From: an uncultured Gammaproteobacteria bacterium
GTDB taxonomy: Bacteria > Patescibacteriota > Microgenomatia > Daviesbacterales > UBA10151
Length of the DNA: 64,000 nucleotides
Direction of reading: 5' to 3'
Assembly (NCBI GenBank): GCA_964393545.1
Contig: CAYMUB010000059.1
Coordinates: 4,571-68,570 of the forward strand
Position 1 is the first letter of the stretch; the number at the start of each line of letters is the position of its first letter. Below the pieces are notes generated by a model that saw only the letters and a program-made list of their open reading frames with translations, made no database searches and was not told the DNA's origin. Positions 5,732 to 16,718 of this stretch are shown one piece after another. The position numbers were made by a program, and so were the translations under genes.

Positions 5732-7183
5732 TTATAAATTCAATGCCCCACCTGCGGTCAAATTATCAATAACGTTATTCTTCCTAACCGTACCACCACT
5801 AATCTTTTCTGCTAAGGGTAAAGTAAAAGAAAACTTACTTCCTTTTCCTGCTTCTGACTCAACCCAAATCTTGCCACCTAATTTGTCTATTATAGATTTA
5901 GAGATATATAATCCTAAACCAGTACCTTTACTGGCTTGCTGCATCTGGTTGGAGACTCTGAAAAATTTATTAAAAAGATGTGACATCGCTTCTTTAGGGA
6001 TACCAACACCTGTATCAGAAACGCTAGTTATTATTTCATTGGGAGAAACTTCTACAGATACAGTTACATTTCCTCCAGCATTTGTATAGTTAATAGCATT
6101 TGCAATAAGATTAATAATAACTTCAGGAGTTCTGATTGGGTCTGCTAATATTTGAGGTAATTGCAAAGGAGGCTCAAAATTTAATACTACACTTTTTTGA
6201 ACAGCCTGGGATTTTAAATCCTCCACCACCTTAGTCACAATAGGTAGATAATCCAAAGCCTGAGGGAATACAGACATTTGCTCCCTTTCAATTTTGTTAA
6301 CATTTAATAGATTTCCGACCAATGTTAAGAGCTGCTTGGCTGATGTTAAGCTTCTTTGCAGAAGGTCTATTTCTGTGTTCTCTATTTTCCCTTTATTCTC
6401 ATCAATAAAGACAGACAAATATCCAATAATAGAAGTTAAAGGAGTCCTGAGTTCATGTGAGGCCATAGAGACAAAATCCAGTCTCATTTTTTCCAGTTCT
6501 TCTTCTTTGGCTATATCATGCATTATCAAGAGACAGGAAACATTGGTTTGAACAGTGCCATTAAGTTGTACAGTTGATAAATTAATCTTAGCTTGTTTGC
6601 CTTGCTTTCCGACTAGTTTAGCTAGTTTATTAAAAGAATTACTGCAATAAGTTTTTGGCAGAATTTCTTCTGAGTCAGTAAAAAGATGGACTAATTGGTC
6701 AACAGGATGACCTGTTAATTCACTTTGAGTAAAACCAGTAATTTCCTCAGCAGCTTTATTGGAAAGAATAATATTTTTATTAAAGTCTATAGCAATAATT
6801 CCATCCACAATTGATGATAAAACCTCACTTAATTTACTCCTGTCAGAAATGGCTATATCTTTTTCTGTTTGTAAATTATGAAATGTCTGAGAAATTTTAT
6901 CAGCCATCAAGTTAAAAGAATTACCAATCTTTTCAAATTCATCACCAGACCTAATATCTACTTTTTGACTAAAGTTTCCATTGCCTAAATTCTCAGAAGC
7001 TGTTATTAAATCCTGCAAAGGTTTTAAAAAGAGAAATATTAAAGTAGAAGAGGTAATCATTGTTAAAATTCCTACCCCAATAGAAATTAATAAATCATGA
7101 ATTAAAAATAGAGAAGTAAAAAGTGGGATAAATGTACTGATTAAAAGAACAACAATAGTTTTTACAAGAAGTGGACGCCCCAT
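5732..7183 (-). CDS. Sensor histidine kinase (TM-HAMP/PAS-HisKA-HATPase)
   Basis: N-terminal TM helices, H-box [12 protein letters not shown]-box motifs (GTGLGL) in C-terminal ATPase domain. Confidence 0.85.
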
Positions 7184-7232
7184 ATAGATTAAGAGTAACA
7201 GAGCTTAGGAATGGAATCAATCTCCCTTTCAG

Positions 7233-7306
7233 TAGCGCGTACGGGAGTTGAACCCGTGATCTTCACATTGAGAACGTGACGTCCTAGGCCACTAGACGAA
7301 CGCGCC
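7233..7306 (-). tRNA. tRNA-Glu (anticodon CUC)
   Basis: Reverse complement reads GGCGCGTTCGTCTAGTGGCCTAGGACGTCACGTTCTCAATGTGAAGATCACGGGTTCAACTCCCGTACGCGCTA: cloverleaf with D-loop typical of tRNA-Glu, anticodon loop TTCTCAA, T-arm GGTTCAACTCC; no encoded CCA. Confidence 0.8.
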
Positions 7307-7328
7307 GTGGTTGAAATTATACAGCAGA

Positions 7329-7357
7329 TTGACTTTATGAACAAATTAAAATAGAAT
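7329..7357 (+). promoter_or_regulatory. Putative sigma70-like promoter for greA (TTGACT-17 nt-TAGAAT)
   Basis: -35 TTGACT 7329-7334, 17-nt spacer, -10 TAGAAT 7352-7357, ~20 nt upstream of greA ATG. Confidence 0.4.
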
Positions 7358-7378
7358 TTGGCCAGCTTGCCCAACTGA

Positions 7379-7873
7379 ATGACAAAGACAAATATCGTGT
7401 CTGCAAAATTTGTAAAAAATACTACTTATCTGACTGCTAAAGGGCTTACTGAGGCAAAATCTGAGTTGGATTTTCTTAAGAAAACTAAAAGATTAGAAAT
7501 TGCCGAAAAAATCCACCAGGCCAGAGAGTATGGAGATTTAGCAGAAAATTCTGAATATGATAGTGCCATAGAAGAACAGTCTTTAACAGAAAATAGGATT
7601 TCTGAGCTGGAGAATATTTTAAAAAAAGTTAAAGTTATTGCAGATAATCACACCGAAGATTTTATCGTAATTGGTTCAACTGTCAAAATTGATATGGATG
7701 GGGAAATTGATCAATTTAAGATTGTTGGTAGAGTTGAGGCAGATCCATCTAAAAAAAGAATTTCCAATGAGTCTCCTTTGGGGATCTCACTATTGGGTGC
7801 CAAAAAAGGAGAGGTGGTTGAAGTTACAACCCCAATTGTCAGATACAAATGTAAAGTATTGGAGATATCATGA
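7379..7873 (+). CDS. greA: Transcription elongation factor GreA
   Basis: 164 aa; N-terminal coiled-coil with conserved EYDSAIEEQ... and C-terminal FKBP-like domain; classic GreA. Confidence 0.9.
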   Translation: MTKTNIVSAKFVKNTTYLTAKGLTEAKSELDFLKKTKRLEIAEKIHQAREYGDLAENSEYDSAIEEQSLTENRISELENILKKVKVIADNHTEDFIVIGSTVKIDMDGEIDQFKIVGRVEADPSKKRISNESPLGISLLGAKKGEVVEVTTPIVRYKCKVLEIS

Positions 7874-9153
7874 ACGATCTACCCTTAATTAAATTTAATC
7901 CCAAACTGCCTAAACTGTCAGCAAATGAAAAAGCTGTATTAAAACTGCTAGTTGAAGCAGGGGAATTAATTGTACCTGTATATGTAGCCCAAGGAGAAGA
8001 TGCGAAAAAGGTAAATAAAGGGGATATTGATAAAGCTGGTAAGAAATCTCCCAATCTAATCTCTCCTTACACCATTGTTGAAAAAGTAGAGGGAAAGCTT
8101 ATAGCCACTCCTTATCATATTAAATACAAAGAACTTCTAAACCCTGTTGCAGAAAAATTAGAAGAAGCAAGCAGGATAACTGAAAATAAGGACTTTAGTA
8201 AAGCTCTCAAAGTTCAAGCAAAGGCATTGTTAACTGGTTTTTACGATCAGGCAACTATAGCATGGCTCAAAGCAAAGCCGTGTATTTTAAATATTTCCAT
8301 AGGTCCGCTTCTCCATTATGATGATCGATTATACTTCTCTAAAGCTTCATACCACGCTTGGGTAGGAGTGATTGATAAAGAAGGAACTGACAAATTGAAT
8401 AATTACAAAAGCATTACCCTAAGTTCCAGGAGAACAGTGCTGGTTCCCAAAGAATGGATTAATCCAGCTAAAATTAAAACAAAAGTACTTGATGTTGTTT
8501 TATTTTCTGGTATTATGGCGAAAACAAGATTTGTAGGAGTAAATTTACCAATTGATATCGATATTATTGAAAAAGATGGAACTGAAGTTACAATTTTTAA
8601 TCAGGCTAATGATTTAAGACTGAAGGAACAAATCTTACCAAGTTTCAATAAGATATTTTCCAAAGGATTTAGACAAGGTTTTACTGAAGAAGATTTGAGA
8701 AAAGGTTATCTGTTAACAACGACTCTTCATGAATTAGCCCATAGTTACCTTAACTATAGATATTCATTTGATAGGCTACAAGATCTATTTACTTGTATTC
8801 AGGAACTTGCTGCAACCATATTAGGGCTTCGTATGGCTGGGTCTCTGCTTTTGAAAGACAGAATTACAAATAAACAATTAGAATCAATGCTTACCGCATA
8901 TATTTCAAGAACCTTCTTCCTTAGGCAAGAAAATAGAAACAATGAATTTATGAGTAAATATATTTTAGGGTGTAATATATTTATTAACTTCATGTTGGAA
9001 AATGGTGCCTTAAAACAACGCGGTAATTTAATTTTTACCAATTTTACTAAAGTATTTGTCTCATTACATGATTTATCTAATCTATTAGAAGACTTACTTT
9101 CAAGTGGGGCTAGAAAAGACGCCCAGTCTTTCGTCATACGATATACAAGATAA
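7870..9153 (+). CDS. Hypothetical protein with HExxH motif (HELAHSY), paralog A of tandem pair; putative metallopeptidase-like
   Basis: 427 aa; start overlaps greA stop (ATGA); homologous along full length to 10218..11534; HELAH motif; family not recognised. Confidence 0.7.
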   Translation: MNDLPLIKFNPKLPKLSANEKAVLKLLVEAGELIVPVYVAQGEDAKKVNKGDIDKAGKKSPNLISPYTIVEKVEGKLIATPYHIKYKELLNPVAEKLEEASRITENKDFSKALKVQAKALLTGFYDQATIAWLKAKPCILNISIGPLLHYDDRLYFSKASYHAWVGVIDKEGTDKLNNYKSITLSSRRTVLVPKEWINPAKIKTKVLDVVLFSGIMAKTRFVGVNLPIDIDIIEKDGTEVTIFNQANDLRLKEQILPSFNKIFSKGFRQGFTEEDLRKGYLLTTTLHELAHSYLNYRYSFDRLQDLFTCIQELAATILGLRMAGSLLLKDRITNKQLESMLTAYISRTFFLRQENRNNEFMSKYILGCNIFINFMLENGALKQRGNLIFTNFTKVFVSLHDLSNLLEDLLSSGARKDAQSFVIRYTR

Positions 9154-9209
9154 AGTTGCCACATTAAGTTGCATTAAAGCTCGATTGTGAGTATAATCTT
9201 TTAAATCTT

Positions 9210-10106
9210 ATGGCAACAACTAGAACTGCTGAACGTATGGGTGAATATATTGGACCGACATCCTCAAGAGTAACAGCTTTAACGTACCAAAGAGGTGAAT
9301 ATATCTATGAAGTGCAAAAGGCGACACGCTCTAATTTAGAGGGTTTAAGAACTAGAGCCATTGGATTTGAAGGACTATTAGAGTATGGGCCCTTCCGTAC
9401 TCCTGCTGAAGTCACTAGCAATATTCAGCCAGGTAGCGAAGTCATTTTTGCAAGCTATAGAGGACGATGGAGAAGAATGTTTGGTCTTCCTGCAAAAGAT
9501 GTTGGAGTAATGACTCTTGAAGTTAAAACAGCGACTATAGAAGGTAGACCAATTAAAGTCATATCTACAGGGGTAAGAGCAGTCGCGGAAAATTTTCAAA
9601 AGCACGGTATAGGCACAGACTTTGTTAGAGATGCAATTCTCAGGCATAGACCAGATGCTGTTACAGGTAGATCTAGGAATTGGAAGGTATATCGCTCGCT
9701 CGAAAAGATTGATCTTTTTAAAAATGGAAGTATTTCTCCAATTGATAAACCATTTCCTCCAGAAGCTCCAAGGGCATTAGAGCAAGTGCTTGCTAGAAGT
9801 AAAATCATAGAGATGGATTTACAAACAGGTCTTGTTAGAGACATTTATCCAAAAAAGAAGCCAAAGGATTTTACTCCTCGTAAAGGTCATGTGGCTGGTT
9901 GGAGAATTCACGATGCATTAATAGCAAAAGGTGTACCCCCAGGAGGAACCAATGGATTAAGATATTGGGTAGAGACTGATCAAGATGCGATTGATGCTGC
10001 GCTTCCTGAGTATCAAAGGCTTTTGGAACCAGAACCTCTAACGCCTAGCAAACGGCCACTTCTACAATCAATTGCAGAGAAGGTAGCAGACTTCCTTCAG
10101 GTTTGA
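9210..10106 (+). CDS. Hypothetical protein (partner X of paralog A)
   Basis: 298-aa ORF, Arg-rich, locally higher GC than neighbours; no family recognised. Confidence 0.55.
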   Translation: MATTRTAERMGEYIGPTSSRVTALTYQRGEYIYEVQKATRSNLEGLRTRAIGFEGLLEYGPFRTPAEVTSNIQPGSEVIFASYRGRWRRMFGLPAKDVGVMTLEVKTATIEGRPIKVISTGVRAVAENFQKHGIGTDFVRDAILRHRPDAVTGRSRNWKVYRSLEKIDLFKNGSISPIDKPFPPEAPRALEQVLARSKIIEMDLQTGLVRDIYPKKKPKDFTPRKGHVAGWRIHDALIAKGVPPGGTNGLRYWVETDQDAIDAALPEYQRLLEPEPLTPSKRPLLQSIAEKVADFLQV

Positions 10107-10113
10107 AAAAAGT

Positions 10114-10146
10114 CTTTTAAAAACCTTCAGTTTCAGATATACTTAA
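10114..10146. repeat. Copy 1 of ~33-bp conserved unit-terminal repeat CTTTTAAAAACCTTCAG(T/C)TTCAGATATACTT
   Basis: Near-identical to 12486..12520; lies at the end of each 2.34-kb duplicated unit. Confidence 0.7.
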
Positions 10147-10221
10147 CACAAAGAAGGAGAAGTGGTTGAGGTTACAACTCCAATTGTCAGATATAAATGT
10201 AAAGTATTGGAGATATCATGA
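10147..10221 (+). pseudogene. Relic of greA 3' end (encodes ...KEGEVVEVTTPIVRYKCKVLEIS*) carried by the tandem duplication
   Basis: ~90% nt identity to 7802..7873; frame intact but no start codon, upstream in-frame TAA at 10144; ends in the same ATGA overlap with paralog B start. Confidence 0.6.
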
Positions 10222-11534
10222 ACGATCTACCCTTAATTAAATTTAATCCCAAACTGCCTAAACTGTCAGCAAATGAAAAAGCTGTATTAAAACTGCTAGT
10301 TGAAGCAGGGGAATTAATTGTACCAATCTATCTTGAACAAGAAAATCAGATCAAAAAAATAGGTAACCTTTATCCTAAAGGAGTCAATAAAGAGAAAATT
10401 AGGATAGCTGCTAAGAAAAATCCTGAGGTTTTATCACCATATACAGTAGTTGAGGAAGTTAATGGGGAGCTGAGAGCAGTACCGTACCATATAAAGTACG
10501 CACAACTTTTAAAACCTGTTGCAGAAAAATTAAATCAGGCAAGTATGATAGCTGACAATAAAGAATTTAGTGAATTTTTAAAGTTGCAAGCAAAGGCTTT
10601 ACTGGATGGAACATATGAAGATGTTTTTGCTTCATGGCAGAAGATGAAACCTTATATTCTAGATATTTCTATTGGACCTGTAGAGCACTATGATGACAGA
10701 GTATTTTTCACCAAAGCAGCTTATCAAGCTTGGGTTGGGGTTGTTGATATGGAGGCAACAAGGAAACTCTATTTTGATAAAACTATAGTTTTAAGTGCTA
10801 GAAGAGATGTTTTAATACCGGGTGAACGGTTAGATAATTATGAGAAAGTCAAGGCAAAAGTGGATGATGTACTCTTGCTCTCAGGATTAATAGCCAGGAC
10901 AAAGTTTGTAGGGCTTAATTTACCTATGAACCTTAAGCTTGTTGAAAAGTATGGATCTGAGGTTACAATATTTAAACAAGTTAATGATTCAAGACTACAA
11001 GAGCAGATACTCCCGACTTTTAAAAAGATTTTTTCTTCGGAGTTTAGAAAAGGATATAGTTCAGAAGATTTAAGAAAAGGTAGTTTACGTTATGTTGCCT
11101 TTCATGAGTTAGCGCATAACTACTTATACTACAAAAGTTCTGCTGAGAGACTTCAGGATTTACTCCCTTCTATCTACGAACTTACTGCTACTCTTTTAGG
11201 TATGAGAATTGCTGGGTCCTTGCTCTTAAAAGATGTCCTTACCAATAAGGAGCTTGAATCAATGATTGTGGCATTCGTTTGCAGAAGCTTTGACCTTATA
11301 GAGAAAAATAAAACTAACAAATTTATGATTAATTATGCTTCCGGGGGGGCTATTTTTATTAACTTTATGCTTGAAAGTGGTGCTTTAAAACAAAAAGGAG
11401 GCATGACTATGCCTAATTTTATGAGGATTTTTGTATCATTACAGGAGTTATCATATATATTAGAACGTTTGTTATCCTCAGGTATCAAAAAAAACGTAGA
11501 GGTTTTCATAAAAAAGTACGGACATTTAAAATAA
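10218..11534 (+). CDS. Hypothetical protein with HExxH motif (HELAHNY), paralog B of tandem pair
   Basis: 438 aa; first ~36 aa identical to paralog A (100% nt identity over ~127 bp), remainder ~50% aa identity. Confidence 0.7.
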   Translation: MNDLPLIKFNPKLPKLSANEKAVLKLLVEAGELIVPIYLEQENQIKKIGNLYPKGVNKEKIRIAAKKNPEVLSPYTVVEEVNGELRAVPYHIKYAQLLKPVAEKLNQASMIADNKEFSEFLKLQAKALLDGTYEDVFASWQKMKPYILDISIGPVEHYDDRVFFTKAAYQAWVGVVDMEATRKLYFDKTIVLSARRDVLIPGERLDNYEKVKAKVDDVLLLSGLIARTKFVGLNLPMNLKLVEKYGSEVTIFKQVNDSRLQEQILPTFKKIFSSEFRKGYSSEDLRKGSLRYVAFHELAHNYLYYKSSAERLQDLLPSIYELTATLLGMRIAGSLLLKDVLTNKELESMIVAFVCRSFDLIEKNKTNKFMINYASGGAIFINFMLESGALKQKGGMTMPNFMRIFVSLQELSYILERLLSSGIKKNVEVFIKKYGHLK

Positions 11535-11598
11535 AACTTCATGCGACTTCTTCGGCATTTTGCAATATGTATGAACAAACGATATAATAACGCCCATT

Positions 11599-12468
11599 AT
11601 GACGATAGAACAAAAAGAGAGAAGGATGTTAACAAGAATGGTTAGTGGAGGAGCTGAACAGCGTGGACCTACAGCTATAGATCTTCCGAAAACAGGATAT
11701 ATTGTAGATATGTATCAAAAGGGATCTTATATTGCAGAAAAGGATGAATTAGCTAGAATAACAAAACGTCTAATTGTAAGCTCCGGTCTTTGGACTCAAG
11801 ATGTAGCAAACCAAATGGTTGAATCGGGTTTAGGTAGCAGTGATCCTGATAATACAAGCTGGCTAGGTTTTAGAAAATCAAATGCACCTCGGGGTGAATA
11901 TGATGGAGTTGCTTGGCAAGAAGAATTATATATTCCTACGGTTAGAGGATACGTGCGACTTCTTCATATGAAATTAAGAGCGTTCGTACCAGATGCTCAA
12001 GGACTTCACCTAGGAAGAACTGGTATGCAGCTTGCTCTCGGTGCACATCCTGAGGTTACTCATATTTCTCATCGAACAGGAAGTGCTGCAGCAGCACGCT
12101 CCTGGTTAGAGTCAGGAGTTTTCAGGGAAGGACGACGTTTTCCTTACGATCTTCCATTTGTTCAAGCTCCCCAGTTGCCCCAAATATTACTATGGCTTTA
12201 TGAGTTATATCATGTAAATGGAGAAAGGCCAAACCTTTCTACGGGAGTAAGTGTGGGTGATTATATCGAACAAAATAAGGCTTATATACCAGATCGAACG
12301 CACCAACCTACAATGGAAATTCTTAAATGGATGGAAGAAAAACCAACAGTATTAGTAGACGGAATGGAAGTAAAAAGGAAAGTATTAGTAGACGGAATGG
12401 AAAAAGATCCATTAGGAATGGATTTACAAAGAGGTGATTCGTTAACTGAGATTGGTGAACTCAGATAA
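11599..12468 (+). CDS. Hypothetical protein (partner Y of paralog B)
   Basis: 289-aa ORF, locally GC-rich (~50% over stretches) versus surroundings; no detectable similarity to partner X. Confidence 0.55.
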   Translation: MTIEQKERRMLTRMVSGGAEQRGPTAIDLPKTGYIVDMYQKGSYIAEKDELARITKRLIVSSGLWTQDVANQMVESGLGSSDPDNTSWLGFRKSNAPRGEYDGVAWQEELYIPTVRGYVRLLHMKLRAFVPDAQGLHLGRTGMQLALGAHPEVTHISHRTGSAAAARSWLESGVFREGRRFPYDLPFVQAPQLPQILLWLYELYHVNGERPNLSTGVSVGDYIEQNKAYIPDRTHQPTMEILKWMEEKPTVLVDGMEVKRKVLVDGMEKDPLGMDLQRGDSLTEIGELR

Positions 12469-12485
12469 AATTTGTTTAATTTCTT

Positions 12486-12520
12486 CTTTTAAAAACCTTC
12501 AGCTTCAGATATACTTTACC
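12486..12520. repeat. Copy 2 of ~33-bp unit-terminal repeat, immediately upstream of lysS
   Basis: CTTTTAAAAACCTTCAGCTTCAGATATACTTTACC vs copy at 10114. Confidence 0.7.
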
Positions 12521-12527
12521 CAATAGT

Positions 12528-14093
12528 ATGTATTGGGCAGATAGGGTTGCTAAAGAAATAATTGATTCAGGCAAATTTAAGCCATATTGGGTTGATGATA
12601 TGTTTACCCCTTCAGGTTATGCCCATATTGGTTCTTTAAGAGGGCCTTTGGTTCATGATTTAATCTATAAAGCTTTAGTTCATCAAAATCAGCAAACTAG
12701 GTTTACCTATGTAATGAATGATTTTGATCCTATAGATGGTTTACCAAAAGAACTGGAAAAAGATTTTTCCAAATACTTAGGTTTTCCCTTAAGAGTAGCT
12801 CCCTCACCTGAAAAAGGATTTGATAGTTTTGCCCAATTTTTTGCTGCTGATTTTAAAAATGTTTTAAATAGTTTAGGTATACAAGCAGAATTTTTATCTT
12901 CTTATGATATGTACAAAGAAGGTAAATTTGATGAAGCTATCAAAATTGCCCTGGACAATGTAGAAAAGATTCAGAATATTTATCAAAAAGTCAGTGGAAG
13001 CAAAAAGGCAGAGCAAGGCTGGTTGCCTTTACAAGTAGTTTGTGAAAATTGTGGCAAATTAGGTACCACCAGAGTTCATAACTTTGATGGGAAAGAAGTT
13101 GAATATACTTGTGAACTTATCATGGTTAAATGGGCTCAGGGTTGCGGATATACTGGTAGAATCTCTCCTTTTGGGGGAAAAGGAAAATTGCCCTGGAAAG
13201 TAGACTGGCCTGCTCATTGGTCAGTAATAGGTGTAACAATAGAAGGGGCTGGTAAAGACCACTCATCTGCTGGTGGTTCAAGAGATATTGCCAAAGAGTT
13301 ATGTAAGAATGTCTTTAAGATCAAGGAGCCATATAATTTGCCCTATGAATTTTTCTTAATCGGTGGTAAAAAAATGGCTTCATCTAAAGGTTTAGGTTTA
13401 AAAGCTAGAGATGCAAAACAACTTTTACCTTCAGAACTGGTCAGGTTTCTATTTGTCAGGACAGATTACAGGCAAGCTGTTGAGTTTGATCCTTTGGGTA
13501 CAATGGCTATTCCAGATTTGTTTGATGAATATGATAGATGTTACTTAGCATTTGCTAAGAAAACGGATCAAGACCTGGCAAGAGCTTTTGAAATGGCACA
13601 AGTTGGAGAATTGCCGGAAGGTGATATTAAAATTTTACCTAGGTTTAGGGATGTAGTTAATTTTGTACAAACCCCTAATGTTGATGTCTGGAAAAAGTTT
13701 GAAGAGATAAAAGGTTCAAAGTTAACTGAAGAAGAAAAAAAGATTTTGGGAGAAAGGGTAGAATACGCCAAAGTCTGGATTGAAAAATATGCCCCGGATG
13801 AATTCAGATTACAAATGTTACCTGAGTTGCCCAATTTAGCAGATACCTTAACGCAAGAACAAAAAAGTTACCTTTCAAGAGTAGTTGAAATTTTAGATTC
13901 AGCAGAGACAGCAGAAAAACTACAACTGGATTTATATAACCTTTCCAAAGAACTCAAAATAGATGCCAAAATTGCTTTTTCTGCAATATATATTTCCATG
14001 ATAGGAAAACAATTTGGACCAAAGGCTGCCTGGTTTTTATTATCTTATCCAAAGGAAAAAGTAATTGAAAGACTAAAAGAGGCAGCAAAATGA
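12528..14093 (+). CDS. lysK: Lysyl-tRNA synthetase, class I (archaeal/spirochaete type)
   Basis: N-terminus MYWADRVAKEII...TPSGYAHIGSLRG matches class I LysRS HIGH-region signature; KMSKS-like GGKKMASSKG; 521 aa. Confidence 0.8.
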   Translation: MYWADRVAKEIIDSGKFKPYWVDDMFTPSGYAHIGSLRGPLVHDLIYKALVHQNQQTRFTYVMNDFDPIDGLPKELEKDFSKYLGFPLRVAPSPEKGFDSFAQFFAADFKNVLNSLGIQAEFLSSYDMYKEGKFDEAIKIALDNVEKIQNIYQKVSGSKKAEQGWLPLQVVCENCGKLGTTRVHNFDGKEVEYTCELIMVKWAQGCGYTGRISPFGGKGKLPWKVDWPAHWSVIGVTIEGAGKDHSSAGGSRDIAKELCKNVFKIKEPYNLPYEFFLIGGKKMASSKGLGLKARDAKQLLPSELVRFLFVRTDYRQAVEFDPLGTMAIPDLFDEYDRCYLAFAKKTDQDLARAFEMAQVGELPEGDIKILPRFRDVVNFVQTPNVDVWKKFEEIKGSKLTEEEKKILGERVEYAKVWIEKYAPDEFRLQMLPELPNLADTLTQEQKSYLSRVVEILDSAETAEKLQLDLYNLSKELKIDAKIAFSAIYISMIGKQFGPKAAWFLLSYPKEKVIERLKEAAK

Positions 14094-15920: not shown

Positions 15921-16718
15921 CTATCTTCCCTGTTGTCTTTGTCTGGCTAAGTCAGCAGCCGAAGTAGCTTGAAGAGAAGCTGATGCACTACCACCTTGTA
16001 GTTGACCAAAATTAGCAGATCCACTTGCAACTGGAGCAGTAGTTTGAGGAATAGGAGTAGCAATAGGAGCAGGAGTTTTTACAGTTGTTTTAGAAACCTC
16101 AGCCGGAAGAGAAGTATTAGTTTTAGGTTGACCTATTCCTAAAATAAAATAGGCTGAAGCACCTATCACAATAATAAGCAAGAGTATTCCTGTTCCAATT
16201 AACCATTTTGGTATACCCCTATGATCTTGAGTTGGAAGGGTTGGTACTTGAGGAGAATTATTGATGGGAGTTGATGGGACAACTAATGTTTCAGGTGCAG
16301 TAGAAAGGTTTTGCCCATTATCTAAAGGAGAATTATTGCTTATTAAGTGTGATAAATCTGTAGGAGCTAATTCTGATTGAACCGGAGCTGGTTCTGCTTG
16401 AACTGGTGCTGATTCAGTTAAAGCAGTTTCCGGTAGGGTTACAGGTAAAGGGGCTGTAGGTGGAGCAGGAGGAACCCAAGTTGGTTGAGGTGAAGAAACT
16501 GGTGGTACAGATGTGCTCCAGGGATTATCTAAAGGAGAGGTAGTTGCAGGTGGGATAAAAGTAGAAACCGGTTCTGGCTGGGTAGTAGGAATAGTTGATG
16601 GTTGAGTGGGAAAAGGATTGGCAGGTGGCGATGTCCAAGTAGGCATAGGAGGAGTAGTGTTTCCTGGTGAAGAAGGATTTGTATTATTTGGCGGATTTGG
16701 ATTGTTCTGATTGTCCAT
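15921..16718 (-). CDS. Pro/Thr/Ser-rich single-pass membrane protein (low complexity), hypothetical
   Basis: 265 aa; P/T-rich N-terminal 170 aa, one TM helix (WLIGTGILLLIIVIGASAYFIL), P/T-rich C-terminus. Confidence 0.5.
   Translation of the reverse strand: MDNQNNPNPPNNTNPSSPGNTTPPMPTWTSPPANPFPTQPSTIPTTQPEPVSTFIPPATTSPLDNPWSTSVPPVSSPQPTWVPPAPPTAPLPVTLPETALTESAPVQAEPAPVQSELAPTDLSHLISNNSPLDNGQNLSTAPETLVVPSTPINNSPQVPTLPTQDHRGIPKWLIGTGILLLIIVIGASAYFILGIGQPKTNTSLPAEVSKTTVKTPAPIATPIPQTTAPVASGSANFGQLQGGSASASLQATSAADLARQRQQGR

Follow-up and report, generated by a model that had tools for sequence, protein, structure and literature searches.

X and Y, two nearby genes of a Daviesbacteria genome, are best explained overall as resident, fast-evolving GNAT genes, each following a gene for a DPP III-like peptidase, in two units that were joined in tandem; we consider this explanation likely. 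An earlier note on this DNA had placed X and Y in equivalent positions, and inspection of the window (the whole 64-kb stretch of DNA that was analyzed) confirmed it. Both are open reading frames (298 and 289 aa, respectively) that follow paralogous peptidase genes, A1 and A2, whose products are 60% identical, so that X and Y occupy the same slot of two repeated units (Table 1). The left edge of the repeated unit consists of the last 69 nt of greA (7801 to 7869), and the greA stop codon overlaps the start codon of A1 (ATGA). An Rfam search over positions 7000 to 13000 returned nothing beyond one tRNA. The 33-nt internal duplication of Y, which encodes VLVDGME twice, is an insertion that is absent from all homologues.

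Table 1. Features of the two units and their borders, with positions in the window
Feature	Positions	Strand	Basis
greA	7379..7873	+	Pfam GreA_GreB on orthologues in related loci
A1, short-form M49 (DPP III-like) zinc peptidase homologue	7870..9153	+	HELAH motif, family profile
Promoter-like element of X	9169..9197	+	TTGCAT, 17-nt spacer, TATAAT, read from sequence
X, GNAT-fold protein, X clade, 298 aa	9210..10106	+	Profiles, family HMM, hhalign
Copy of pre-lysS spacer	10113..10151	+	36/39 identical to 12485-12523
Relic of greA 3' end	10149..10217	+	64/69 identical to 7801-7869
A2, second M49 (DPP III-like) peptidase homologue	10218..11534	+	PF03571, 24 bits
Promoter-like element of Y	11560..11588	+	TTGCAA, 17-nt spacer, TATAAT
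Y, GNAT-fold protein, Y clade, 289 aa	11599..12468	+	Structural model; cofactor motif degenerate
Stretch of ~50% GC in Y, conserved family core	11998..12180	+	Conserved columns, family alignments
33-nt tandem duplication inside Y	12331..12396	+	VLVDGME twice
Original spacer upstream of lysS, right edge of repeated unit	12485..12523	+	Repeat comparison
lysS (class I), conserved right-hand neighbor of slot	12528..14093	+	Pfam tRNA-synt_1f on orthologues; synteny

X and Y are diverged members of one family

The earlier note had described X and Y as unrelated, without obvious similarity. The latter description holds for the pairwise comparison, which is marginal (24% identity over 91 aa; E value, 0.009), but profile comparisons join the two genes. 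In hhalign, the X clade matched the Y2 clade with a probability of 98.3% and the Y clade with a probability of 91.4%, values that became significant only with subfamilies derived from the locus, since the shallow alignments (3 and 7 sequences) gave 0.6%. BLASTP single linkage at 1e-5 connected the X and Y types via intermediates, and alignments revealed common motifs that span the full length of both types. These results show that X and Y belong to a single small family that is specific to Candidatus Daviesbacteria and within which they have diverged deeply. A word-indexed search retrieved very few relatives (3 and 7 proteins), and an exhaustive HMM search yielded 133 clusters (50% identity) at E values of ≤1e-3. 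When ten family representatives were sampled, each 90%-identity cluster had one or two members and no names.

Direct searches with X and Y of Pfam, NCBIfam, PADLOC, and PDB sequences gave no significant match. The family profile, searched against PDB, matched the GNAT structures 4rs2 (7.9e-5), RimI (5e-4), and Ard1 (7.5e-4), and among 131 family representatives, 28 matched Acetyltransf_1 (best, 1e-5) and 26 matched Acetyltransf_7. A structural model of Y had strand 1, helices 1 and 2, strands 2 to 4, helix 3, strand 5, helix 4, and strand 6, which is the GNAT order. The corresponding model of X, built from a 3-sequence alignment, was unusable (pLDDT, 39); the fold of X thus rests on homology (family HMM E value, 6e-68) and on weak profile hits. 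The X-clade profile matched only GNATs in PDB, with Naa30 as the best (E value, 0.017), and 4 of 26 X-clade members matched Acetyltransf_7.

Family members have the GNAT fold (~170 aa) and, C-terminal to it, a conserved region of ~110 aa with the motifs TG..., P.D, and GD; a profile of this region found nothing in PDB below an E value of 1.4. The pyrophosphate-binding motif A loop of GNATs was tested as Q/R-x-x-G-x-G/A. In X, the cofactor motif is canonical (Q130-K-H-G133-I-G135; nt 9597 to 9614), and the X and Z clades keep this loop. The motif of Y is degenerate (Q134-G-L-H137-L-G139), with His in place of the first Gly, as in the whole Y clade. Judged from this substitution, Y may bind the cofactor differently or act noncatalytically.

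Compared with known members of the GNAT superfamily (RimI, Ard1/Naa10, Naa30, Naa50, and aminoglycoside acetyltransferases), X and Y share only ~10% identity, carry the extra C-terminal region, and belong to a family that is fixed beside an M49 peptidase gene and shows extreme sequence turnover. A GNAT-type toxin-antitoxin system was considered and rejected. TacT/AtaT-like modules pair a GNAT toxin of ~170 aa with a small DNA-binding antitoxin gene, whereas the slot proteins have 250 to 350 aa and their only constant neighbor is a 430-aa peptidase homologue. PADLOC found no match at the locus.

The slot gene is resident in Daviesbacteria

The slot was compared across related genomes, a check that the earlier note had proposed. 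Of 58 full-length units whose downstream sequence was long enough for a decision, 53 had a family member between the peptidase gene and lysS. Nearly all sampled Daviesbacteria share the order greA, M49/DPP III-like peptidase gene, slot gene, lysS, HD, and serS. No integrase, transposase, or other mobility gene adjoins the locus. This analysis showed that the slot gene is resident rather than foreign. In deep-branching relatives, the peptidase gene has an unrelated partner or none, and a distant family member (P0230) has no such peptidase nearby. Two sets of candidates were discarded: slot proteins of 407 to 457 aa at three loci (L029 to L031) as family members (hhalign probability, 0.1%) and a 420-aa gene near P0230 as a peptidase homologue (probability, 0.3%).

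A TTGnnn-17-TATAAT element lies 8 to 15 nt upstream of the start codon in 20 of 28 slot genes. In X, the −10 hexamer ends 12 nt before the ATG, which implies a leader that is very short or absent; in Y, it ends 10 nt before the ATG. As read from these elements, the slot gene is probably expressed from its own conserved promoter-like element. A functional tie between the slot gene and the peptidase gene is suggested by adjacency. It is weakened by the overlap of greA with the peptidase gene next to a separate promoter for the slot gene, by the deep-branching relatives and P0230 described above, and by the failure of literature searches to link DPP III with a GNAT.

The partners are DPP III-like peptidase homologues

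By profile and motif, A1 and A2 are assigned as M49 (DPP III-like) peptidase homologues. The peptidase family profile matched the Caldithrix abyssi DPP III structure 6eom with an E value of 2e-33 (positions 58 to 429) and 5zum with an E value of 2e-25, in matches that cover almost the entire length. A2 scored 24.0 bits against Pfam PF03571, above the 21-bit cutoff, and A1 fell just below it at 19.9 bits. H296, E297, H300, and E321 (A2 numbering) are invariant in a 21-sequence alignment, and E321 aligns with the second Glu of EECKAD in 6eom. The zinc ligand assignment for the DPP III-type peptidase was taken from PMC5805324; the partner Glu aligned with zinc ligand E442 is conserved, as is HELAH (PMC5805324, PMC9820243). 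Short bacterial DPP III enzymes, the closest known relatives of the partners, have a pentapeptide HExxH motif (HEISH in 6eom and HELMH in Corallococcus 5zum), as do the partners with HELAH. The partners differ from the characterized short enzymes in length (~430 aa versus 537 to 566 aa) and in the second motif (YELxAT versus EECKAD), and the characterized enzymes have no described GNAT partner.

Origin of the tandem pair

Scars at the junction (the greA relic, the copied pre-lysS spacer, and a 3-nt microhomology) suggest that the tandem pair is a fairly recent join of two preexisting divergent units. The edges of the repeated unit are 92 to 100% identical, and the interiors are saturated. At the junction (10149 to 10151), the two repeats overlap by 3 nt, CAA. 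The spacer copy at 10113 to 10151 contains a promoter-like TTTAAA-16-TATACT. We propose that two divergent units, A1-X and A2-Y, would have been joined head to tail, fairly recently, by an illegitimate event at the 3 nt that the pre-lysS spacer and the 3' end of greA have in common, most likely between two related haplotypes. Another tandem array, which arose independently at locus L044, likewise combines two different types. Identities of the 5' segments to other loci gave no discrimination as to which unit is native. An assembly chimera of two strains was rejected: the joined sequences share only 3 nt, contig L038, which was assembled independently, crosses the junction with 100% identity, and the greA relic has five differences of its own.

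The near-identical edges could reflect gene conversion instead of a recent join. According to this alternative, the pair is an old in-place duplication whose edges were later homogenized. In its favor, the two units are arranged as in a classic tandem duplication, tandem paralogues commonly undergo gene conversion, and the perfect 130-nt run at 7847 to 7976 looks like a conversion tract (the first 107 nt of A2 are identical to those of A1). In addition, the L044 array has edges as diverged as its interior (~70%), as predicted for an old duplication. Three observations argue against it. First, A1 is closest to peptidases that precede X-type partners elsewhere (65 to 66% identity), a grouping with bootstrap support under 70%, and A2 falls in a 100%-bootstrap clade with single-unit genomes (L036, L037, L009, and L010); given these groupings, an old duplication would need many independent losses. 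Second, both edges show the same divergence of 6 to 8%, including the 39-nt spacer, which lies more than 2 kb of unalignable sequence away from the left edge. Third, four of the five differences between the greA relic and greA are synonymous third-position changes (p about 0.045 under neutrality), which fits divergence inside two functional greA genes. We regard an old duplication with conversion as a serious but doubtful alternative to the recent join.

The slot gene evolves fast and is exchanged among lineages

The earlier note had offered fast evolution as its second explanation for the difference between X and Y, and this is supported for the family as a whole. Median pairwise identity was 0.25 for the slot gene, 0.60 for the adjacent peptidase, and 0.74 to 0.86 for greA, HD, and HPPase. 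Clustering of 54 units at 50% identity gave 1 peptidase cluster and 31 slot clusters. In L001 versus L040, the sole pair with unsaturated synonymous sites, dN/dS was 0.45 for the slot gene versus 0.11 for the peptidase gene; a dozen further locus pairs were saturated (dS above 1). These results show that no other gene of the block evolves nearly as fast as the slot gene.

Trees of the peptidase and slot proteins conflict at 90 to 100% bootstrap, albeit in neighbor-joining trees of very divergent sequences. The nearest relatives of A2 (77 to 78% identical) carry slot proteins only 25 to 34% identical to Y. In L001 versus L040, dS was 0.21 in the slot gene and 1.0 to 1.8 in the flanks. These findings indicate that slot variants recombine among Daviesbacteria lineages independently of the peptidase gene. 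The suggestion in the earlier note of an exchanged position thus stands for swaps among Daviesbacteria lineages, as the tree conflict and the dS anomaly show, but not for import from outside the clade.

The rapid turnover might instead reflect relaxed constraint rather than diversifying selection, with the slot protein being a pseudoenzyme or an accessory or regulatory subunit, e.g., a binding partner of the peptidase. The loss of the first Gly of the Q/RxxGxG/A loop in the Y clade, the very low identity between lineages, where few residues are close to invariant across the family, and a dN/dS below 1 are all consistent with this explanation. However, the X and Z clades retain the canonical loop, motifs are conserved along the whole length of the protein, almost all of these very small genomes carry an intact gene with a conserved promoter, and both copies are intact in the window. 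We consider relaxed constraint unlikely.

At the other extreme, the locus might be a recombining allelic cassette, in which ancient diverged GNAT variants are kept by diversifying or frequency-dependent selection, swapped between lineages by homologous recombination in the conserved flanks, and occasionally stacked in tandem arrays of two different types. The agr and com pherotype loci and the capsule and O-antigen loci are allelic recombining loci between conserved flanks. By analogy, the slot locus shares with these deeply diverged variants at one locus, conserved flanks, and discordant trees, as well as apparent exchange between lineages and occasional tandem arrays of two types. Unlike the agr, com, capsule, and O-antigen loci, it has no secreted peptide, receptor, or surface product, and its proteins look cytoplasmic. 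We judge the full cassette model to be quite unlikely. If true, it would point to an antagonistic or partner-specific role (for instance, one that involves a host or a phage, or else a peptide toxin or antibiotic) and not to routine metabolism.

Possible function of the slot protein

The fold and the gene neighborhood suggest that the slot protein is most likely an N-acyltransferase whose substrate, a peptide or a compound derived from an amino acid, would be linked to the neighboring exopeptidase and modified at an amino group. Dipeptide removal by DPP III-type enzymes is assumed to need a free N terminus, and one possibility is that the slot GNAT would block peptide N termini. Literature searches on Daviesbacteria and acetyltransferases found nothing relevant, and those on DPP III and GNAT operons found no link.

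A detoxifying role is highly unlikely in our judgment. Here, the slot GNAT would acetylate an antibiotic or a toxic aminoacyl-nucleotide and thereby protect the adjacent aminoacyl-tRNA synthetases, with an arms race driving diversification. MccE/RimL and the aminoglycoside acetyltransferases serve as the models for this explanation. AAC(2'), AAC(3), AAC(6'), and RimI-type enzymes are among the best structural and profile neighbors, and the slot gene always lies directly upstream of lysS, whatever the lysS class, with serS nearby.

Composition is a trait of the family

The compositional observations of the earlier note were reproduced. The GC contents of X (0.415) and Y (0.402) exceed the mean of 50 open reading frames (0.346; standard deviation, 0.033), and the stretch of Y near 50% GC (12001 to 12180) measured 0.506, the joint highest value among all 180-nt windows of the 64 kb. 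Arg-rich X, with 9.4% Arg, ranks first among 50 proteins (mean, 3.5%), and Y ranks third (7.6%). The note had also proposed a comparison of per-gene GC3 and codon usage with the genome, in which both genes fell within the norm. GC3 was 0.247 for X and 0.228 for Y versus 0.253 ± 0.030, and the z scores of a codon-adaptation-like index, for which the window's own genes were the reference, were −1.3 and −1.0, respectively. The excess GC is confined to codon positions 1 and 2, in proteins rich in Arg, Gly, Ala, and Pro. At all 27 related loci analyzed, GC is higher in the slot gene than in its neighbor, by a mean of 5.5 points, with GC3 lower by 1.8 points. The raised GC of X and Y stems from the high Arg, Gly, Ala, and Pro content of the conserved family core; the ~50% GC stretch of Y encodes motif A, helix 3, strand 5, a motif-B-like segment, and FPYDLPF. 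The GC shift is a family-wide amino acid trait, with no foreign DNA implied.

The proposal that X and Y are unrelated cargo, brought in horizontally and recently from outside the lineage, is consistent with the ~6-point rise in GC and its local peak, the scarcity of database matches, and a tRNA gene 70 nt upstream of greA, but it is extremely improbable given the normal GC3 and codon index, the same shift in every related locus, the homology of X and Y and the synteny of their family, and the lack of an adjoining mobility gene or a PADLOC match. The earlier note had held that normal GC3 and codon usage in conserved, syntenic housekeeping genes would speak against its proposal; composition and synteny turned out that way, although X and Y are not known housekeeping genes.

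Implications

Two lessons follow for reading such loci: a GC shift limited to codon positions 1 and 2 is no evidence of foreign DNA, and the lack of similarity between two slot genes can mask true homology. The work also delimits a GNAT subfamily without prior annotation; in one lineage of the candidate phyla radiation, nearly every DPP III-type peptidase gene has a member as its neighbor. The slot gene is the fastest-evolving one inside a conserved housekeeping block (greA, lysS, and serS) of a minimal genome, at a locus with signs of variant exchange and repeated tandem stacking. If this turnover is driven by relaxed constraint, the locus would be an ordinary curiosity; if selection is the driver, the locus would mark an interaction surface in organisms of almost unknown biology.

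Conservation of the slot in relatives

The genes X and Y each lie directly downstream of one of two paralogous M49 (DPP III-like) peptidase genes, A1 and A2, and had been assigned to the same slot in the two units, A1-X and A2-Y. This assignment was borne out: A1 and A2 are 60% identical, and X and Y are therefore in equivalent positions. Downstream of lysS, the window continues with an HD-domain gene, serS, and secA, in that order.

In a word-indexed homology search of 5.8 billion proteins, X matched only 3 proteins and Y only 7. The contigs carrying these matches had an identical gene order in all cases (greA, a peptidase homolog, an X-like or Y-like gene, lysS, HD, and serS). The peptidase family was far easier to detect, with more than 400 proteins recovered, and its named members all belonged to Candidatus Daviesbacteria or the Patescibacteria group. 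By way of this family, related loci were retrieved from genome contigs (27 loci) and metagenome contigs (40 loci). A block recurs across them that comprises HPPase, a response regulator, a histidine kinase, greA, the peptidase, a slot gene of 250 to 390 aa, lysS, HD, and serS.

The loci held 65 full-length peptidase genes, 7 of which were too near a contig end to judge. Automatic scoring found a member of the X/Y family at most 250 nt after 52 of the 58 judged peptidase genes; an intact member in L024, overlooked by the ORF filter, brought the total to 53 of 58. Of the five exceptions, four (L029 to L031 and L032) form a deep-branching group of the peptidase tree. The slot is occupied in L029 to L031 by an unrelated protein of 407 to 457 aa with an HExxH-like motif and without a Pfam match, and it is empty in L032, where lysS begins 55 nt after the peptidase gene. 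In the fifth, L028, no family member was detected downstream of the peptidase gene. The earlier note had suggested that the slot may be a variable cargo position, possibly of horizontal origin; the retention of a family member in 53 of 58 units compared across relatives argues against this.

Immediately past the slot, the window, L005, L009, L010, L017, L023, L033, L034, and L036 carry a class I lysS (PF01921), and a class II lysS (PF00152) takes this position in most other Daviesbacteria. These include L037, which by the peptidase tree is sister to L036 plus the window yet differs from them in lysS class, as if one synthetase class had been replaced by the other at this position among close relatives. 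The serS identities were bimodal (∼0.5 versus ∼0.8).

Coordinates of features in the window and in related loci
Feature	Sequence	Position	Strand	Remark
tRNA gene	window	7233-7306	-	Rfam RF00005, 58.9 bits; between histidine kinase gene and greA
greA	window	7379-7873
Last 69 nt of greA (left edge)	window	7801-7869		repeated at 10149-10217; 64/69 identical
Perfect 130-nt run	window	7847-7976		same as 10195-10324; spans first 107 nt of A1 and A2
A1	window	7870-9153		427 aa
Promoter-like sequence before X	window	9169-9197		TTGCAT-17-TATAAT; -10 box end to ATG, 12 nt
X	window	9210-10106		298 aa
Junction	window	10149-10151		CAA
A2	window	10218-11534		438 aa
Promoter-like sequence before Y	window	11560-11588		TTGCAA-17-TATAAT; -10 box end to ATG, 10 nt
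Y	window	11599-12468		289 aa
GC-rich stretch of Y	window	12001-12180		GC 0.506, joint maximum among all 180-nt windows
33-nt tandem duplication in Y	window	12331-12363 and 12364-12396		85% identical; VLVDGME encoded twice
Pre-lysS spacer (right edge)	window	12485-12523		repeated after X at 10113-10151; 36/39 identical
lysS	window	12528-14093		class I
Pro/Thr/Ser-rich ORF	window	15921-16718	-	265 aa; one hydrophobic segment
Unrelated slot protein	L029	6375-7748
Unrelated slot protein	L030	6350-7582
Unrelated slot protein	L031	6345-7568
Second tandem array	L044	4483-11020		JGI contig Ga0209515_10006241
Divergent peptidase-like paralog	L044	9650-11020		after the array; ∼31% identical, without HExxH
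Divergent peptidase-like paralog	L054	2267-3619
P0230	L041	5001-5720		239 aa; ENA ERZ27297438 k141_93553

Homology of X and Y

X and Y had been described as unrelated, with no obvious similarity. This holds for the pairwise comparison, which gave a marginal alignment (24% over 91 aa, E = 0.009), and fails at the level of profiles. BLASTP single linkage of 36 slot proteins placed X-type and Y-type clusters in one group at 1e-5, with intermediates bridging them. In profile-profile comparisons of subfamily alignments, the Y core matched the X clade with a probability of 91.4% (E = 9e-7, 145 columns), and the related Y2 type matched X with a probability of 98.3% (E = 1e-14, 203 columns). The multiple alignment showed motifs common to X and Y along their full length: a Gly within a strand (G99 in X), R-x-F followed by a Q/R-x-x-G-x-G loop, an (H)R(T) segment, P-x-D, T-G, and G-D or N-G close to the C terminus. 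These alignments indicate that X and Y are homologous. The internal duplication in Y is an insertion found in no homolog.

When 1.84 billion cluster representatives were searched exhaustively with the family HMM, 133 members passed E ≤ 1e-3 and 71 of them passed E ≤ 1e-10; most were about 220 to 350 aa long. The 90%-identity clusters of ten looked-up members contained one or two sequences each.

Base composition and codon usage

Measurement confirmed the composition reported for X and Y, including the stretch of about 50% GC in Y. GC was 0.415 in X and 0.402 in Y, compared with an average of 0.346 across 50 window ORFs (standard deviation, 0.033), and the Arg content of X (9.4% versus 3.5%) was the highest of 50 proteins, with Y third. 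The suggestion that this shift signals horizontal origin was not upheld. GC3 was normal (0.247 in X and 0.228 in Y; window, 0.253 ± 0.030), as was an index similar to the codon adaptation index, with the genes of the window as reference (z = −1.3 and −1.0), and AGA predominates among the Arg codons of X and Y as in the rest of the window. The excess was confined to GC1 (0.535 and 0.566 versus 0.441) and GC2 (0.462 and 0.414 versus 0.345), and Gly, Ala, Arg, and Pro together make up 33% of X and 28% of Y (mean, 21%). The same pattern was seen in 27 of 27 loci, where the slot gene exceeded the adjacent peptidase gene in GC by a mean of 5.5 points and lay slightly below it in GC3 (−1.8 points). 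The GC shift is an amino acid effect and no mark of foreign DNA. The GC-rich stretch of Y codes for the best-conserved segment of the family, GLHLGRTGMQLALGAHPEVTHISHRTGSAAAARSWLESGVFREGRRFPYDLPF. The remaining peak of 0.5 GC, near 16370-16460, is due to the Pro/Thr/Ser-rich ORF, whose composition is more extreme than that of any other ORF in the window (GC2, 0.586; GC3, 0.169).

Evolutionary rate and exchange of slot genes

Median pairwise amino acid identities, taken over the same locus pairs, were 0.86 for both HPPase and HD, 0.74 for greA, 0.69 for class I lysS, 0.61 for the peptidase (0.60 in the 377 pairs having greA, peptidase, and slot gene), 0.57 for class II lysS, 0.54 for serS, and 0.25 for the slot gene. 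Clustering of 54 units at 50% identity gave a single peptidase cluster and 31 slot clusters. For the one pair informative for dN/dS (L001 versus L040, synonymous sites being saturated in all others), the ratio was 0.11 for the peptidase (dN, 0.114; dS, 1.02) and 0.45 for the slot gene (dN, 0.095; dS, 0.21). Rapid evolution, which had been offered as the alternative to horizontal cargo, is what these measures support. Nucleotide identity between L001 and L040 was ∼80% in the peptidase gene, 86 to 96% in the slot gene, and 60 to 86% in lysS; it thus peaks in the slot gene, whose ancestor is therefore younger than that of its flanks.

Neighbor-joining trees of slot and peptidase proteins are in strongly supported conflict (percentages are bootstrap values). 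The slot tree placed L007, L009, and L015 together at 100% and L010, L021, L012, and L036 together at 90%, whereas the peptidase tree recovered two 100% clades, the first holding A2 with L009, L010, L036, and L037 and the second holding L005, L007, and L021. L011 carries an X-type slot protein (100% clade), but its peptidase groups with that of L018, which has a Z-type slot protein, at 87%. The nearest relatives of A2, in L036 (78%) and L037 (77%), are accompanied by slot proteins 25% and 34% identical to Y, and the nearest relatives of Y (53 to 57%) accompany peptidases 63 to 72% identical to A2. In their respective trees, A1 and X fall with the same X-type loci (L001, L025, and L040), and the A1-X unit therefore looks co-inherited. 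Judged from these sequences, slot variants have been exchanged within the Daviesbacteria clade.

Origin of the tandem pair

The two units in the window are bounded by repeats. The end of greA recurs as a relic at the left edge of the second unit and leads into the perfect 130-nt run, past which identity falls abruptly, reaching ∼60 to 70% between the peptidase genes and the background level between X and Y. The pre-lysS spacer recurs after X, and the left- and right-edge repeats share 3 nt at the junction, an overlap that we read as the mark of an illegitimate join.

A fairly recent joining of two already diverged units, probably from related haplotypes, is favored. The edges are 92 to 100% identical and the interiors saturated (dS > 1.5); A1 goes with the X-type lineage (bootstrap < 70%) and A2 with single-unit genomes (100% clade); and of the five sites at which the greA relic differs from greA, four are synonymous third codon positions (p about 0.045 if changes were neutral). 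Gene conversion is a live alternative explanation for the near-identical edges. On the same grounds, a recent join is preferred to an ancient duplication whose copies diverged where they now stand. A strain-mixing assembly artifact was ruled out by the five differences peculiar to the greA relic and by L038, a contig from an independent Logan assembly of ERR4904393 that matches positions 7947-10224 at 100% and therefore crosses the junction.

An independent second array, in L044, consists of greA, a peptidase gene, a Y2-type slot gene, a 126-nt greA-tail relic, a peptidase gene, and a Z-type slot gene, with edges just ∼70% identical; two different types have therefore been stacked more than once.

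Expression signals

Promoter-like sequences precede both X and Y, and no Shine-Dalgarno sequence was evident upstream of either gene. Their TATAAT boxes occupy 9192-9197 and 11583-11588, and transcripts are predicted to start 5 to 7 nt beyond them. The arrangement TTGnnn-17-TATAAT at 8 to 15 nt from the start was found for 20 of 28 slot genes versus 28% of other gene starts, which points to a promoter of the slot gene's own and to transcripts with a very short leader or almost none. Unlike the slot genes, the peptidase genes overlap the greA stop codon. A promoter-like TTTAAA-16-TATACT, now upstream of A2, is contained in the copy of the pre-lysS spacer.

GNAT fold of the slot protein and its peptidase partner

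The fold of the X/Y family is that of GNATs. In an AlphaFold model of Y (mean pLDDT, 59; 64 to 92 over residues 21 to 150), the elements are in GNAT order, and the top Foldseek matches of this model in the PDB were all GNAT acetyltransferases (E about 1e-4); the model of X reached a pLDDT of only 39. Among 131 family representatives, Pfam matches were to Acetyltransf_1 (28; best, 1e-5), Acetyltransf_7 (26), and Acetyltransf_10 (10). The family profile matched PDB sequences of the acyl-CoA N-acyltransferase 4rs2 (7.9e-5), RimI (5e-4), and Ard1 (7.5e-4), with lower matches to MshD, Naa10/30/50, and AAC(2'). The X-clade profile alone matched GNATs exclusively (best, Naa30 at E = 0.017), and 4 of 26 X-clade members matched Acetyltransf_7. 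The C-terminal region (∼110 aa) had no match in the PDB. The cofactor loop of X is canonical (Q130-K-H-G133-I-G135); in Y and its clade, the first loop Gly is replaced by His (Q134-G-L-H137-L-G139). P0230, a distant member in a different context, exceeds the Acetyltransf_1 threshold and has no M49 homolog nearby; the family therefore grades into ordinary GNATs at its fringe. The P0230 gene is preceded by aminotransferase, NUDIX, and AAA_17-like genes and adjoins an HTH/Gp49 pair and a transposase.

The A1/A2 family profile matched the DPP III enzymes of Caldithrix abyssi (6eom, E = 2e-33) and Corallococcus (5zum, E = 2e-25), which are characterized M49 peptidases with a pentapeptide HExxH motif (PMC5805324, PMC9820243). 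Across the 21 sequences of the peptidase alignment, H296, E297, H300, and E321 do not vary, A1 and A2 both keep them, and E321 aligns with the zinc-binding Glu of 6eom. A1 and A2 are thus predicted to be short DPP III-type peptidases, and the slot gene constantly adjoins a gene for such a peptidase with intact predicted zinc ligands.

The slot protein is most likely an N-acyltransferase whose substrate, a peptide or a compound derived from an amino acid, would be modified at an amino group and would be related to the exopeptidase. One plausible reaction would be the blocking of peptide N termini, given the N-alpha-acetyltransferase neighbors of the family and the removal of dipeptides from the N terminus by DPP III (PMC5805324). 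A pseudo-enzyme or accessory subunit and a detoxifying acetyltransferase are alternatives. The functional link between slot protein and peptidase is weak because its sole basis is adjacency, because deep-branching relatives have the peptidase without an X/Y-type partner, because P0230 occurs without a peptidase, and because we found nothing in the literature connecting the DPP III and GNAT families.

Overall, the reading of X and Y as unrelated, horizontally acquired cargo is wrong and the alternative of rapid evolution is right. To it are added the exchange of variants within the clade and the probable joining of two diverged units in tandem in the window. What emerges is a hypervariable GNAT subfamily, unannotated until now, that is paired with a DPP III-like peptidase.
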